A DNA stretch of 64,000 nucleotides, from positions 5,208,001 to 5,272,000 of the forward strand of contig CAKKNE010000004.1 of the NCBI GenBank assembly GCA_918797485.1, read 5' to 3'. The position numbers were made by a program, and so were the translations under genes. Below the pieces are notes generated by a model. The model was not told where the DNA came from. It did not search any database and was given only the letters and a program-made list of their open reading frames with translations. Shown here in pieces: positions 4,951-12,083 of the stretch; position 1 is the stretch's first letter, and each line of letters opens with the position of its first letter. Origin of the DNA: Pelagomonas calceolata (lineage: Eukaryota).

Positions 4951-6177
4951 TCAAGACGATGAGCCGGAGGGCCGCCGGCGCTTCAGCGCCCGAACGGTCT
5001 CAAGCCACGGCGCGAACTCGTCGCCGATCTGCGCGCGGCGCAGCGACTTCCCGACGGCCGCGGCCGCCTCGGGGACGCCGTCGCCGCGCAGGACCGCCCC
5101 GCCCAGCCTCGCGACGCGCGACGCGTGCCGCAACGCGTGGAACGCGTGCAGGTACGGCGCCGCTTTTTCGTCGGAGCGCTCGAGCGCGTCGAACGCGGCG
5201 GCGGACCCGTCGCCGTGAACGGCGGCGAGGGCGCGCCCGAGGTCGGCCGCGGCGGCGGCGTGCGCGCGCGTCGGCCGCCCGCGCCGGCCGCACCTAAAAC
5301 ACGCCGGGCGCCGCAGCAGCCCGCCGCACGCGCAGAGGCGGCCGGCCATCGCGCGCTGCACCGCGGCGGCCGGCGTGCCGTCCCGCCGTTCCGCCCGGCA
5401 GCGCGCGCAGGCGCAATCGAAAAGGTACGTGTCTCGAAGGGACGCCCGGCGCTGCTCGCCCGGCGCGTAGAGCGGCACGTACGCGATGAAGACCTGCTGG
5501 CCCGGCGCGATCGCCGCCCGCGCGATTAGACGCAAGACGGGGGCGCGGCCCGCCTCGATGACGACGACGGGATCGCAGTTCGGCGCGCACGAGTGGTTCG
5601 CCGGCGCCGCGGCCGCGAAGAGGCCGCAGCCGACGCTCTCCTCGCCGAGCTCCAGCGGCGCATGCCGCCACCGATTCGTCTCGGAGACGCCGAACTCGTT
5701 CGACTCGAAGGCCGCCGCGTGGCGCGCGAGGCGCCGCGCGTCGCCGCCGCAGAACGCGGCGGCGCGGGCCGCCGCGGCCTTGAACGCGTCGCGGCGCTCG
5801 GGCCCGTAGGCGTCGTGGTGGTTCTCGAGCGCGTCGAGCTGCTTCGCGACGGCGCCGTCGGCCCGCTCCGCGGCGGCGAGGCGCAGCAGGCTCCGCACGA
5901 GGACCGGCTCGCGCGACGCCGCGCCGCAGACCGACGCGTGCTGCGGGCTCCGTTTGCACGTCGCGCAGAGCACCGCGGCGCATGATTTGTTGCCGCACGG
6001 TTTCGTGGCCGTGTCGGCGAGGCACACGTCGCAGCGCTCGCCTACGAGATGGTCGAGGAGCACTACGGAGTTGCCTGTCGCTTGGCATTCCAAAAGGACG
6101 GTGCCCTTGGCTATGCGCTTTGTGCTTACGAATGCTCTGCCCATGCGTTTCGTGTGTTTGATGGTTACGGATGCCAT
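4951..6177 (-). CDS. SET (SMYD-like) domain lysine methyltransferase
   Basis: GRAFVSTKRIAKG, Cys-rich MYND-like insert, NHSCAPN, IAPGQQVFIAY, YLFDCACARC. Confidence 0.85.
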   Translation of the reverse strand: MASVTIKHTKRMGRAFVSTKRIAKGTVLLECQATGNSVVLLDHLVGERCDVCLADTATKPCGNKSCAAVLCATCKRSPQHASVCGAASREPVLVRSLLRLAAAERADGAVAKQLDALENHHDAYGPERRDAFKAAAARAAAFCGGDARRLARHAAAFESNEFGVSETNRWRHAPLELGEESVGCGLFAAAAPANHSCAPNCDPVVVIEAGRAPVLRLIARAAIAPGQQVFIAYVPLYAPGEQRRASLRDTYLFDCACARCRAERRDGTPAAAVQRAMAGRLCACGGLLRRPACFRCGRRGRPTRAHAAAAADLGRALAAVHGDGSAAAFDALERSDEKAAPYLHAFHALRHASRVARLGGAVLRGDGVPEAAAAVGKSLRRAQIGDEFAPWLETVRALKRRRPSGSSS

Positions 6178-6696
6178 TGTTGGACCGATGCGCAATTGCT
6201 GCCTGATGCATGCACTGGCACTCTGGCGGCACGCTGACACTGCTGGCACTCTGCACTCCGGCACTGCCGTCACTGCTGCCACTGCTCTAACGATTCCACT
6301 ACGATCACGCTTTTTGCGTTGCCCTGTGCGGCTATAGCTGCTCTCTCTGCCGCCGCGTCTCTCTGCCGCTCTCCTGAGTCTGCCTTGGCTGCAAAACGGG
6401 TTTTCGTTTCCGATCGTCATCCGGCTATGAGTCCTTCCGACTCGTTCTTAGAGCGATAGGTAGCTGACAGTACGTGGTGCGTTGGCGACCGACGAACCAA
6501 GGAGCCAATAAAGTGCGCCTCTCTACGTATTGCTCCAAAAGGAGGGCCGGCGTCCGCGTTCGCGCGCCGTGATCAACACTCGTGGTGTGGTGCTAAGAAC
6601 TGTCAGCGCTCGTACGCAACCGCTGCAGCCGCGCCGAGCCGTACCGCCAGTTCCCAGCAGCTGCCCAAGCTTCAAACACCTCCAGCCGAGGCGCTG

Positions 6697-8160
6697 ATGG
6701 CCGCGCTCGAAGAAAAGTTGGCCGCGCTCTCGACGCACCCCCCAAAATTCGCGGTCCGCGGCCGCTTCGTCCACGCGAACGCGCGGCGCGCGGGCCTCAT
6801 CGAGTTCGTCGAGGACGGGCTGATCGTCGTCGAGGACGGCGCCATTATTGCCGTGGCCAAGGACGCGGACCAAATCAAGGCCGTGCTGGCGGAGCACCGG
6901 CCCCAGGACGTCGTCGAGCTGGCCGAGACGGAGTTCCTCGCCCCCGGCATGGTCGACTGCCACGTGCACGCGCCGCAGTACGCCTACTCGGGCACGGCGA
7001 CGGACAAGCCCCTCATGGAGTGGCTCCAGCACTACACGTTCCCCGCCGAGAAGCGGTGCGTCGACGTCGACTACGCGAAGACGCTGTACAGCGCGCTCGT
7101 CGACCGGCTGCTCATGCAGGGCACGACCTGCGTCGCTTTATATGCCACGATCCACGTGCCCGCGACGAACGCGCTCGTCGACATCTGCCTCGAGAAAGGA
7201 TTAAGGGCGGTCGTGGGCAAGGTCTGCATGGACCGGCACGGCGGCGACGGCTACGAGGAGACGACGGCGGAGGCGCTCGCGGGCACGCGGGCCTGCCTCG
7301 ACTACATACGGAAGGCGCAGCCCGGCGCGTCCGGATTATCGCGGCTCGTGCAGCCGTGCGTGATCCCGCGGTTCATCCCGACGTGCACGCCCGAGCTCCT
7401 CGCGGGTTTGGGGGACATCGCGCGGGAATCCGACGACGTCTGGGTCCAGAGCCACGCGTCGGAAGCTCCCGACCAGGTCAAGTTCGTCGACACGCTCCAT
7501 CCCGGAAAGAGGTGCACGGAGATCTTCGAGTCGCACGGGCTGCTGACGGACAAGTGCGTCATGGCGCACTGCGTCTACCTCGAGGACGGCGAGCTCGACA
7601 CCTTCGCGCGCAAGGGCGCCGGCGTCGCGTGCTGCCCCCTGAGCAACGCCATCTTCTCGCTCTCGCCGGGCTGGCACGCGTTCCCGTTCCACAAGGCCCA
7701 CGCCAAGGGCGTGCGCGTGGGCATGGGCACGGACATCGCCGGCGGCTATGCCGCGTCCATCCTCGTGGCCTGCCGCCACGCCGCCGTCGCGTCCAAAGCC
7801 TGTGCAGAAATCAACGTCGCGTCGATGGCGTGGAAGCGTGGGGCGCCCGAAATTTGATTTTCACGCAGGTCTAAGCACGACATGGGCGAGAAGGACGTCG
7901 ACTACAAGGACGCGTTCTGGGCCGCGACGCTCGGCGGGGCCCGCGCCCTGGGCCTGGACACGGTCCTCGGCAACTTCGAGGTGGGCAAGCAGTTCGACGC
8001 GGTGCGCATCAACTGCGAGGCGGGCAACTACGACACGTTCCCCTCGGCGATCCACCCGTGCTGCCCGTCGCGGCTGGAGCACGACTTCGAGAAGTTCGTG
8101 AACCTCGGCGACGACCGCAACATCGCGAGCGTCTACGTCCAGGGCAAGCGGCGCCGCTGA
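6697..8160 (+). CDS. Guanine deaminase (amidohydrolase); exons 6697-7790, 7869-8160
   Basis: PGMVDCHVHAPQY, PRFIPTCT, QSHASE, MAHCVYL, CPLSN, GMGTDIAGG, ATLGGARALGL, GNFEVGKQFDA, GDDRNI; spliced length 461 aa. Confidence 0.92.
7800..7868 (+). mobile_element. Introner copy 3 (subfamily B); intron 7791-7868 GT-AG
   Basis: TIR-like ends CTGTGCAGAAATCAA / TTGATTTTCACGCAG; flanks GTCCAAAGC and GTCTAAGC; splicing restores ..AVA SKHDMGEK. Confidence 0.9.
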
Positions 8161-8290
8161 TCTCTCTCTTGCTGGTCCATATGTCTCACATCGCTGGTGC
8201 ATATCTCCGCTCTCTTGTGTATATGTCCTCCCCCGACCACTCCCCCCTGTTTTAAGATTAATCAGATATAACAAACAGCGCGACTGACTG

Positions 8291-8369
8291 CCACGGGGGC
8301 GGATAGTTCGAGCGGCGTCCGGAGGATATATCCCGCCGGGCGCCGCCGTCATGGATCCGCCAGCCGTGA
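8291..8369 (-). promoter_or_regulatory. SECIS element in the 3'UTR of the selenoprotein gene
   Basis: Minus strand: helix I GGCGGAT/ATCCGCC, core AUGAC...CGAA, 12-bp helix II GGCGGCGCCCGG/CCGGACGCCGCT (one mismatch), apical CG plus mini-stem GGAT/ATCC. Confidence 0.8.
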
Positions 8370-9053
8370 CTAGTCGAGCCGCGCGAGCGCCTCCTCGACG
8401 GCGTCGATCGGTGCGGGCGTGCCCGTCTTCTCTTGGTACGAGTAGATGATTTTGCCGGACTTGTCCACGACCAGGACGCCGCCCAGGAGCAAGCCCTCGC
8501 CGACCATGTTGCCCTCGATGTTCTTCTCCTTCATGCGCCTCCCGACGTCCCGGAACGAGCGGATCGTGCGCCAGGGTAACAGCAAAGCCTTCAACGTGCC
8601 CCCGAGCGTCAAGAGGCGGCGGTTGCCCAGGTACGCGTAGAACGCCTTGTCCTCGTCCAGGTACAATTCGCTGCCCTTGAAGTAGTCCCGCTGGAACTCG
8701 CCGACGCCGAGGACCGTGTCGTTCGCCGCCTGTTTCGTGGGCGCCACCTCCTTGACGACGCCCACCAGTCGCTGCTTGCCGCCGCGGATCGCCACGAGCT
8801 CCGAGAGCCCCAGCGCCTCCTCGCGGCAGAGCGGTCAGCCCGGCCGCCGCACGACGAAGACCAGCGCGCCGTTGTCGCGCCAGAGCGAGGAGGCCTCAAT
8901 TGAGTTGCCGTTAATCGCACCGTTCTTGACCGGCCGCAGCGTCGTCGTCGCGAGGTCGGCGGCCGACATCACCACGCGTCTGCTGATCGACATCTGCCTG
9001 GCGGCGAGGCCCGCAGCGCCTGCTGCCAGCAGGGTGGTGCGGCTGAGGATCAT
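8370..9053 (-). CDS. Selenoprotein U / PRXL2A-like AhpC-TSA redoxin with Sec (UGA at 8835-8837)
   Basis: ORFs 8835-9173 and 8370-8795 are in one frame: VFVVRRPG-UGA-PLCREEA (UxxC), then GNMVGEGLLLGGVLVV; SECIS directly downstream. Confidence 0.88.
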
Positions 9054-9092
9054 CCTTGCAGCAGGCTGCTCAGTCAGTGAGTCCAGCCACCT

Positions 9093-9144
9093 GAGTCCTA
9101 GCACCGACGACCCCGTGCGAGTCCTAGCACCGACGACCCCGTGC
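9093..9144. repeat. Perfect 26-bp tandem duplication in the 5' leader
   Basis: GAGTCCTAGCACCGACGACCCCGTGC x2. Confidence 0.9.
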
Positions 9145-9232
9145 GGCAACTCGATGCGTCTCCTGGAGCACACCCACCCGCACGGATGACCCAGCTACGC
9201 CCAAGGTCGGCGCACCTACGCACGCGATTGCT

Positions 9233-9256
9233 GCTAGCGGCCTGTAACACACTAGC
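9233..9256 (-). promoter_or_regulatory. Recurrent upstream motif (GCTAGTGTGTTACAGGCCGCTAGC on minus)
   Basis: About 180 bp upstream of the minus-strand selenoprotein ATG, same orientation. Confidence 0.5.
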
Positions 9257-9501
9257 CTCGATTGCTTTTTGGCAAGTTTTTGCTGCTCAGCTGCCCAGAG
9301 GGTGGAACGCAGCTCAATTGCTCATAGCAGCACCTTATTGCTCGCAGCGTGACGCCTCGGAGGCGAGTTTCAAGCGATCCAACAATACCCCAATGCAGTC
9401 ACAAGGCCTGAACGCTGCTGGAGCCTCATAACAGCCTAAACGCCGTCGCTGCGCGAGCATACTCGCTGCAGAACACATTCGTCGCCGCGCGAGCACACCT
9501 G

Positions 9502-9957
9502 ATGGAGCGCCGCGCGATTCACGAGGACCCGGACGGCTACTACTTCCGGAGCCCAACCGGCAAGCTCTACGGGCCACTTTCAAGATTTCAGTTCGAGGCG
9601 TGGAGCATGCGCGGCGCGGTCGGGCCGGGCAGTAAGGTGTGGCGCCAGCAGGGCGCACACCACTATCGAGTCGAGATCTCACGGCGCCTCAAATGGCAGA
9701 AACTGCTCTCGGTGCGAAGCTGCGGCGCGATGAGCGACTGGCTCATGACGTTCATCAGCGTCGTCTCGCTTGTCTTCCTCTTCTCCCTCAAAAAGCTGCG
9801 CGACGACCTGCGGAAGGAGCTGCGGGGGCACGCGGCGACGGGCGTTTTCCTCTTTCTCTTGTTCGCCGCGACGGTCGTGCTGTCGGTGAGCGCGATGCGC
9901 AAGCTCTCGAAGCGCGTCGTCACCGAATCGACGGATATTTTCGACCACGAGGTCTAG
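9502..9957 (+). CDS. Small membrane protein with GYF_2/DUF4339-like N-terminus
   Basis: YYFRSPTGKLYGPLS..W...G.V.P.SKVWRQ pattern followed by two TM helices. Confidence 0.6.
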   Translation: MERRAIHEDPDGYYFRSPTGKLYGPLSRFQFEAWSMRGAVGPGSKVWRQQGAHHYRVEISRRLKWQKLLSVRSCGAMSDWLMTFISVVSLVFLFSLKKLRDDLRKELRGHAATGVFLFLLFAATVVLSVSAMRKLSKRVVTESTDIFDHEV

Positions 9958-9981: not shown

Positions 9982-10842
9982 CTAGCGTGGCAACGTCGCT
10001 GCGGCGGTGCGAAGCCACCCCAAATAGGCCTCCCGATCGACGAGGCGCGTCGCCGCCCTGACTCTACTCTCGCCCCCGACGACGCGCCCGGCCGCGTCGA
10101 CGCCGTAGCTCACGTCGCGGATCTCGAAGGAACCCTCCCTCGAAGCGCAGAACGCCGCCAAAGGATCGAAGCGCGCGGCGCAGGCGTCGGCGCTGCAGAG
10201 CGATCCTATGACTCCGGGCAGCTCTGTTGATTCGGCGAACGCGTCCGTGCAACAGTCGAGGCCCACCAAGGTGAGACTTGGGCAGGTTTTGACGACGGCC
10301 GCCGCCGCCGCCGGGTCGCAGGCAAAATTAAATTCAGGTTCGCGACCGGGCGCGTCGCCGCCCATAGCTATTGCGGTCTCCACGGTGACCCGACCGCTGG
10401 CCAAAACAGCCGCCACGTTCGTGAGCGGTCCGAGACACAGGAGGTCCACAGCGCCTAGCGCGGCGACCGCGCCGCCGACGTCGCCGTCGAACGGCCCGGA
10501 AGCCGCGCCCAGCGACCTGTCCGCGAACCACCGCAGCAGCATCTTCTGCGCGTCGGTGAGCCAGGGCTTGACGGGGACGCGCGGCGCCGACGCACCGGCG
10601 ACGACTGTTACGTCGTTACGCCCACAAGCGTTCAGTATTGTCCTGACGCGCCCGGCGCCGGCCTCCGGCGTCTCGCATGCGCCCGAGGTGGTCGACACGA
10701 CCGCTAAGCGCCGCTCCGTGGCGGCGAGCGCGCTGAGAGCAACCAGATCATCAAATCCCGCGTCCGTGTCGACCCATAAGGGTCGTTTTGCAGTCATGCT
10801 GCTGGTCACTGCTATTGTGAGGCTGCGCAGGAGATTACGCAT
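9982..10842 (-). CDS. Inosine/uridine-preferring nucleoside hydrolase
   Basis: WVDTDAGFDDLVAL, LGPLTNVA, AMGG, EFNFACDPAAA, VGLD, FDPLAA. Confidence 0.88.
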   Translation of the reverse strand: MRNLLRSLTIAVTSSMTAKRPLWVDTDAGFDDLVALSALAATERRLAVVSTTSGACETPEAGAGRVRTILNACGRNDVTVVAGASAPRVPVKPWLTDAQKMLLRWFADRSLGAASGPFDGDVGGAVAALGAVDLLCLGPLTNVAAVLASGRVTVETAIAMGGDAPGREPEFNFACDPAAAAAVVKTCPSLTLVGLDCCTDAFAESTELPGVIGSLCSADACAARFDPLAAFCASREGSFEIRDVSYGVDAAGRVVGGESRVRAATRLVDREAYLGWLRTAAATLPR

Positions 10843-11258: not shown

Positions 11259-12083
11259 TCACACTCTGACGAGAATGCAGGCGTCGAACGGGACCAGGTA
11301 GTCATCATCGACGCCGTACGCGCGGCATTCGTCGTTCAAGCAGTCGATGACACACTCCCGACCACATAAATGCCGCATATCCTCGTTCCAGCCCACGTCT
11401 TCTTCCGCGCCCGGAGCCAGGCGCTCGCAGAGATGCTCCAGCTCGTCGACGTCGTCGATGACGCGGATCACCGACTGGCCCTCCACGAGGTCGTCGCGCC
11501 ACTCGGTCATGGGCCGGCCCGCGAGGGACCCGGACGGCTTGTACTGTAGGAGCCGCTCGACCTCGCTGCCGAGGCCCAGCGCGGCCGCCTCGTCGCCGAA
11601 CTTTTTGACCTGCTCGCGGAGCTTGAACGCCTTCAGGAGCATCTCCCGCTCGGGCGACTTTGCCGCCGCATCGAGGTGCTCCTTGGCCGCGTCGAGGCCG
11701 CCCGGCAGCTTCTCGATTATCTTGAGCCGGGCGGAACCGAGGTGCCACGCGGTCGCCGCCTCGGCGTCGACGAGGCCGTTCTCGATCGCGGAGGATACGA
11801 TGCTGCGACTCGCCACGCTGTCGACGAGCTGCGTGCCCATCGGCTTCCGCGTGAACGGCGAGGTCTCCTTCTTCTGCAGCCACGTCTCGATGCGCTCGCG
11901 CTCGTAGACTTGGCCGTCCTCGGCGACGACCGGCTGGACCACCAGGCTGTGCGAGATGGGGCAGGTCACCGACGCGAGCACGGACTCGGCGAACTTGTCG
12001 GACTTGTCCTCGTCGCGCGCCCGCTTCTTGGCCGGCGCCTTGGCCGCCGCCTTGCCGCGCTGGCGCTTCGCTTTGCTAGACAT
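11259..12083 (-). CDS. U-box protein with C-terminal Mind-bomb SH3-like repeat
   Basis: CPISHSLVVQPVVAEDGQVYERERIETWL..TSPFTR; C-terminus IRVIDDVDELEHL..GWNEDMRHLCGRECVI. Confidence 0.8.
   Translation of the reverse strand: MSSKAKRQRGKAAAKAPAKKRARDEDKSDKFAESVLASVTCPISHSLVVQPVVAEDGQVYERERIETWLQKKETSPFTRKPMGTQLVDSVASRSIVSSAIENGLVDAEAATAWHLGSARLKIIEKLPGGLDAAKEHLDAAAKSPEREMLLKAFKLREQVKKFGDEAAALGLGSEVERLLQYKPSGSLAGRPMTEWRDDLVEGQSVIRVIDDVDELEHLCERLAPGAEEDVGWNEDMRHLCGRECVIDCLNDECRAYGVDDDYLVPFDACILVRV

Follow-up and report, generated by a model that had tools for sequence, protein, structure and literature searches.

An expressed, intron-free gene of Pelagomonas calceolata that very likely encodes selenoprotein U, followed by a SECIS-like hairpin apparently without canonical apical adenines

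A gene of the SelU/PRXL2A family in the pelagophyte Pelagomonas calceolata is interrupted by one in-frame TGA, which raises the question of whether this codon ends the protein or is read as selenocysteine (Sec) and, in the latter case, what kind of selenocysteine insertion sequence (SECIS) the hairpin directly behind the gene might be. In this work, we analyzed 64,000 nucleotides of the genome (GenBank assembly GCA_918797485.1, contig CAKKNE010000004.1, forward-strand positions 5,208,001 to 5,272,000; hereafter the window, to which all coordinates refer unless a related locus is named). We found an expressed gene without introns that very likely encodes selenoprotein U (SelU; probability roughly 0.93), with UGA codon 73 likely read as Sec with the help of a hairpin that has no AA at its apex.

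Reading the frames of the window gives an open reading frame at 9053-8370 on the minus strand, with an ATG at 9053, 227 codons, a TAG at 8372-8370, and a single in-frame TGA. The extent of this coding sequence (8370-9053) is supported by the frame, a Pfam match, and RNA reads. The TGA (8835-8837, codon 73) is the first position of U-P-L-C in the translated context VVRRPG-U-PLCREEA. An earlier note on this DNA had placed it at the redox CxxC of the family, in RRPG-U-PLCREEA, and had seen the gene split there; both observations hold, the first by the frame and the homologue columns and the second by a plain ORF caller, which yields two pieces (9173-8835 and 8795-8370) instead of one gene.

Three stranded poly(A) RNA runs from one sample define a minus-strand transcript from ~9216 to ~8212-8275. 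None of the three contains a splice joint, an indel, or a variant at or around the TGA, and the sole intron detected within 7700-9600 lies in the neighboring gene. An intron that removes the TGA, raised earlier as a way in which the Sec reading could fail, is therefore not found in these runs. The same note had considered polyadenylation upstream of the hairpin; minus-strand reads run through to ~8212-8275, and the hairpin region is transcribed behind the SelU coding sequence. Read depth drops toward the 3′ end, to 6-13 over 8276-8339 versus ~45-90 across most of the coding sequence. In one of the three runs, 11 molecules start at 8359, within helix I of the hairpin, which could be a priming artifact or a shorter isoform. 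No poly(A) tail of the SelU mRNA was present among the loose read ends listed for the three runs. A poly(A) site at 8275 in two metatranscriptomes was rejected as the SelU 3′ end, as it is on the plus strand and comes from the convergent neighboring gene. At the other end of the transcript, the 5′ UTR (9054-9216, with reads ending near 9216) has no upstream AUG and contains a 26-nt tandem duplication at ~9093-9145 on the minus strand; one metatranscriptome contig is 26 nt shorter at this place, which corresponds to one copy.

When the TGA is read as a residue, the product matches Pfam AhpC-TSA_2 (PF13911) with an E value of 4e-15 and 56.5 bits against a cut-off of 27. In an AlphaFold model built from a 33-row alignment (mean pLDDT 87), strand 63-67 is followed by helix 74-89, which opens with U-x-x-C. 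Cys76 (8826-8828, minus strand), which the alignment and the model suggest as the resolving cysteine of UxxC, falls in the first turn of this helix. The model and its fold matches give a thioredoxin-like fold with a [U/C]xxC opening the first fold helix, as is characteristic of SelU/PRXL2 proteins. The best fold match in the PDB is human prostamide/prostaglandin F synthase (PGFS; E 4.5e-11, TM 0.62/0.85), followed by peroxiredoxins. At the sequence level, the protein is 38% identical to PRXL2A of the mollusc Babylonia and shares with it the RRPG-x-x-LCREEA motif. The earlier assignment to the SelU/PRXL2A family is upheld by the Pfam match, the PRXL2A motif, the fold matches, and the rows of the tree.

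Like proteins of the SelU1/PRXL2A (C10orf58) subfamily, it combines a thioredoxin/peroxiredoxin-like fold with the motif RRPG-[U/C]-x-LCREEA, but it departs from them in several respects. In a midpoint-rooted tree of 51 rows chosen from the homologues, without a SelU2/SelU3 outgroup, it belongs to a separate algal/protist clade of 33 rows (support 100/100) that stands apart from animal, fungal, and brown-algal PRXL2A. Nearly all members of this clade have an insertion of ~11 amino acids after KE, and the Pelagomonas protein adds an N-terminal extension. PGFS (PDB 9us9/9usa) is also the closest solved structure by sequence (E 3.6e-19), and its CxxC aligns with the algal UxxC; it differs in having ~30% identity, the motif RRFGCVVCRWIA, and Cys in place of Sec. 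In the naming that defines the SelU subfamilies, PGFS is SelU3 (PMC3473315). By motif, the Pelagomonas protein is of the SelU1/PRXL2A type and appears nearer to PRXL2A than to PGFS, and the PGFS substrate should not be assumed for it.

The nearest named relatives are all from pelagophytes, with identities of 55% in Aureococcus, 59% over a fragment in Aureoumbra, and 42% in Chrysophaeum. The proteins of Aureococcus anophagefferens (KAH8049125.1 and KAK7240505.1, "prostaglandin-F synthase") and Chrysophaeum taylorii (KAJ8601302.1) have a similar N-terminus, and their public models lack 26 and ~41 residues, respectively, across the UxxC site. Judging from these sequences, the gap is most likely a falsely predicted intron that skips a TGA. 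A related pattern was found in a set of 143 homologues among the matches listed (69 from one search and 74 more out of 120 of 141). The full motif is present in 54 of these, with Cys at the TGA column in 49 and Trp in 5, whereas 49 are without the motif and the remaining 40 begin exactly at xxC, the pattern that a split at a TGA would give. For annotation, this means that the active site is missing from the public models of the nearest named relatives and that those 40 listed homologues start just behind it.

Eight metagenome loci related to the gene were found, seven of which span codon 73, and all seven keep the TGA over a range of protein identities from 99 to 39%. The earlier note had asked what residue homologues carry at this column, and they have Cys or the conserved TGA. 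In other words, the mature mRNA contains an in-frame UGA that aligns with Cys in homologues and lies between conserved flanks, as in known selenoprotein genes. No relatives were found in viral contigs or in the prokaryotic genomes searched. Within the 64-kb window, there is no tRNA gene, and no second selenoprotein gene was obvious by eye in a listing of U/C motifs.

The SECIS-like hairpin (8290-8370, minus strand) overlaps the TAG stop by one base. By folding, its helix I consists of outer arms (8370-8364/8296-8290) and inner arms (8361-8355/8304-8298). The 5′ side of the core, A-UGAC (8348-8352), is identical in the five related loci with a hairpin (L001, L002, L003, L005, and L006), and the 3′ side (8307-8310) is CGAA in the window, CGAC in four relatives, and CGAG in L006. 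Helix II, placed by folding and by the relatives, has a 5′ arm of 12 nt (8336-8347) and a 3′ arm of 12 nt (8311-8322) that form 11 pairs and one C.A mismatch. The 13-nt apex (8323-8335, CGGGAUAUAUCCU) comprises an unpaired C8335, a mini-stem of 3-4 bp, and an AU-rich loop, with no AA. The UGA is 482 nt upstream of the core, more than the minimum distance of ~51-111 nt for a SECIS; the core is 17 nt past the stop, in a part of the 3′ UTR that is covered by RNA reads. A UGA/GA core with a preceding unpaired purine between two helices, as described for SECIS elements (PMC2647825), is present in all six elements. The 12 positions of helix II and the 13 nt of the apex are within the SECIS limits of 11-16 bp and 8-30 nt, and helix II of L006 can be extended to 20 bp.

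The whole hairpin has a folding energy of −50 kcal/mol (z −4.46), and none of 200 shuffled sequences was equally stable. A scan for SECIS geometry on both strands of the 64 kb gave one match, namely, the hairpin behind the SelU stop. Block-shuffling the window 40 times gave on average 0.4 matches, so a match somewhere in the window is unremarkable; the number expected within 120 nt behind the SelU stop is ~0.0004. With a relaxed scan, 14 matches were found in the window, 13 of them besides the SelU hairpin. The geometry claimed in the earlier note right after the TAG (helix I, AUGA/GA kink-turn core, 12-bp helix II, and apical mini-stem) was recovered, with one mismatch among the 12 positions of helix II.

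The hairpin is kept directly behind the stop in five of the six related loci with a 3′ region. Over five sequences, helix II is 95% paired, the C.A mismatch is replaced by a C-G pair in three relatives, and G-C and G-U pairs interchange at two positions. The same changes, each on one side of a pair, appear at 8311 and 8314 in a metatranscriptome contig. The five close SECIS elements have no pair with changes on both sides, and their covariation was not above that of shuffles. Six two-sided changes all come from L006, whose GC-repeat helix has an uncertain register and which was misplaced in the six-sequence MAFFT alignment, and the signal of true covariation in these sequences appears weak. 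The element of L002 failed the strict scan because of two mismatches and was placed by homology. The L006 hairpin (832-925 on the plus strand of that locus) comes from a relative with 59% protein identity and 77% GC; it has an AUGAC core, a perfect 20-bp all-GC upper stem, and a UCGC loop, with no adenine. The sixth locus, L008 (2166-3567, plus strand), is a distant homologue with 45% GC, 39% identity, and an in-frame TGA. A relaxed scan found no SECIS in the 1.4 kb downstream of this gene, where an AUGAC word occurs ~75 nt past the stop without a matching GA.

If the TGA were a true stop, the locus would be a pseudogene or a split gene, and the hairpin would be a GC-rich stem unrelated to it. 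In favor of this, DNA rich in GC readily forms stems, z is only −1.66 for the upper stem when helix I is left out, and most database proteins start after the TGA. However, the TGA is conserved down to 39% identity exactly at the catalytic Cys column, and a single transcript spans both halves. Both halves are also under purifying selection: in comparison with four relatives, synonymous changes exceed replacement changes on both sides of the TGA (for L005, 24/13 upstream and 38/15 downstream), and GC3 is 0.89 upstream and 0.95 downstream. We consider a true stop highly improbable. A reading of the UGA as Trp or Cys, by a changed code or leaky read-through, has in its favor the five protein entries with Trp at the column but is the least credible of all, as these entries most simply come from a gene caller that applied another code to a TGA codon, Trp would abolish the catalytic residue, and TGA is the commonest stop among the long ORFs of the window (18 of 31) and hence an ordinary stop elsewhere, with no general reassignment.

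With codon 73 read as Sec, the mechanism would follow established eukaryotic Sec biology, in which SBP2 would bind the UGA/GA kink-turn core of the hairpin and eEFSec would deliver the Sec-tRNA to UGA73. The resulting enzyme would be an oxidoreductase with a thioredoxin fold; Sec73 would attack and Cys76 would resolve the selenenylsulfide, so that the pair would cycle between the selenolate/thiol state and the Sec73-Cys76 selenenylsulfide. Putative substrates that the product may reduce are peroxides or lipid-derived compounds.

The hairpin resembles eukaryotic SECIS types I and II in its helix I, unpaired A, UGA/GA core, 12-position helix II, 13-nt apex, and location in the 3′ UTR. It differs from them in that none of the six elements has AA, AR, or CC 10-13 nt above the core. 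These are the dinucleotides of the four SECISearch1 patterns (PMC3753652, supplement); the hairpin has GG, GC, CG, and GG at these positions, so no SECISearch1 pattern can match. In published elements, adenines are typical at the apex, and cytosines are found there in a few cases (PMC3753652). A second difference from canonical elements is in the 3′ core, where UGAC/CGAA departs from the published consensus UGAN/KGAW (PMC3753652) by a C at K, and the relatives also depart at W. No SECIS family of Rfam matched at E values up to 10. Three other Rfam matches (E 3.8-10) were far below the cut-offs and were rejected as chance. The earlier expectation that default SECIS searches could miss the element is right for the four SECISearch1 patterns and Rfam; SECISearch3 in Infernal mode does not require AA and only down-grades such elements (PMC3753652).

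The earlier note had also described the unpaired apical bases as CG. In folding runs with the core held open, which ignore protein binding, the probability of being unpaired is 1.00 for C8335 and 0.03 for G8334. Only the C is predicted to be unpaired in the window, L001, L002, and L003, whereas both the C and the G are paired in L005 and L006. The usual AA is absent, and folding supports the claim for C8335 but not for G8334; the hairpin is better described as a SECIS without canonical apical adenines than as one with unpaired CG. In this element, adenines at the apex are apparently not needed, or only one is left, an A with which the loop begins 15-16 nt above the core.

Three readings of this apex can be weighed. 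The one toward which we lean, tentatively, is a type I SECIS with an elongated stem that would differ only mildly from the canonical form: helix II would have 15-16 bp, and the functional base would be an A on the 5′ side of the loop, which starts with AU in the window and AA in L005. An A is found at the predicted loop start, 15-16 nt above the core, in five of the six elements. Its probability of being unpaired is 0.99-1.00 in L001, L002, and L005, and the last of these folds as a 15-bp stem capped by the loop AAGAUC. Helix 2 of known SECIS elements spans 11 to 16 bp (PMC2647825). However, the loop A is mostly paired in the window and L003 (probability unpaired 0.36), neither of which has AA there, and L006 has a perfect 20-bp stem and no A in its UCGC loop.

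That the element is indifferent to its apical sequence is possible, and we hold this second reading with some reserve. Only UGA/GA is described as invariable in SECIS elements (PMC2647825); a 2005 review states that mutation of the AAR motif prevents Sec insertion and that its function was unknown (PMC2792357). The uninterrupted A-free upper stem of L006 suggests a broader form of the idea, in which the SECIS elements of pelagophytes, the lineage with the largest reported selenoproteomes, need no apical adenines and a kink-turn core on a GC-rich stem suffices; as a statement about the lineage, we regard this as doubtful.

A type II SECIS with an unpaired CG in the place and role of AA is unlikely. 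CGG directly follows the twelfth pair in all six elements, at the position of the AA, even in L006 with its 59% protein identity. On the other hand, only the C is unpaired in four elements and both bases are paired in the other two, and a CGG shared among homologous GC-rich elements may reflect descent.

Sec-containing SelU has been reported in Ostreococcus and Thalassiosira, the latter with two genes (PMC2375036), and in a majority of 36 algal genomes (PMC7539508), and is among the commonest algal selenoproteins. Aureococcus has 82 selenoprotein genes (PMC7539508). The main text of the Pelagomonas genome paper does not contain "selen" (PMC9481584). The Aureococcus entries at 9 of 28 places in the supplement of PMC3753652 are low-scoring candidates and uninformative. 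As a protein, the Pelagomonas product is unremarkable within an established selenoprotein family; of greater interest is its SECIS, which varies a known type. In the literature searched, which did not include the Aureococcus selenoproteome paper, we found no pelagophyte SECIS described as CG-type or A-less. This type of apex may already have been described, since the abstract of that 2013 study by Gobler et al. in ISME J reportedly refers to a "unique" insertion sequence for Sec in Aureococcus. If A-less SECIS elements were lineage-wide and undescribed, pattern searches would under-count pelagophyte selenoproteins, and the elements would be natural probes for the job of the AAR motif. Behind one conserved gene, the apex grades naturally from AA in L005 to a single A in the window and none in L006, and these elements would provide ready-made reporter constructs for this motif.

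The N-terminal extension (approximately residues 1-32; 8958-9053, minus strand), delimited by the alignment, the model, and its composition, consists of a hydrophobic stretch followed by a basic, acid-free stretch and is common to the pelagophyte relatives. The first 32 amino acids include four Arg and no Asp or Glu and have low pLDDT in the model. The extension that the earlier note had taken for an organellar targeting peptide is real, and import of the product into an organelle is likely. By eye, the hydrophobic stretch ends in AAG-L in Pelagomonas and Aureococcus and in AVG-F in Chrysophaeum. The bipartite plastid signal of heterokonts is composed of a signal peptide, F/W/Y/L at +1, and a basic transit peptide. 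Since the G-L (G-F in Chrysophaeum) before the basic peptide resembles this signal, the plastid is a somewhat more likely destination than the mitochondrion; mitochondrial import or a membrane anchor may be alternatives.

The neighborhood of the SelU gene contains genes for a SET-domain protein (4951-6420, minus strand), a small protein with weak GYF similarity (9502-9957, plus strand), an inosine-uridine nucleoside hydrolase (9982-10842, minus strand), and a U-box protein (11259-12083, minus strand), and no functional link between these four and the SelU gene is evident. An amidohydrolase gene (PF01979; 6697-8160, plus strand), which we take to be guanine-deaminase-like, is convergent with the SelU gene. 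Its transcript ends at ~8245-8275, where it abuts or overlaps the 3′ end of SelU, and the same neighbor sequence follows the gene in L001, L002, L003, and L005. This amidohydrolase gene has a 78-nt GT..AG intron (7791-7868) that is spliced in all three RNA runs. Introner-sized introns have been reported for pelagophytes (PMC9481584). A 14-base motif of the intron occurs nine times in the window (the other sites being 106, 13443, 24100, 31111, 32565, 50333, 55094, and 55568) and represents a high-copy, introner-like repeat family; over the intron, the summed contig depth climbs from ~570 to more than 100,000.
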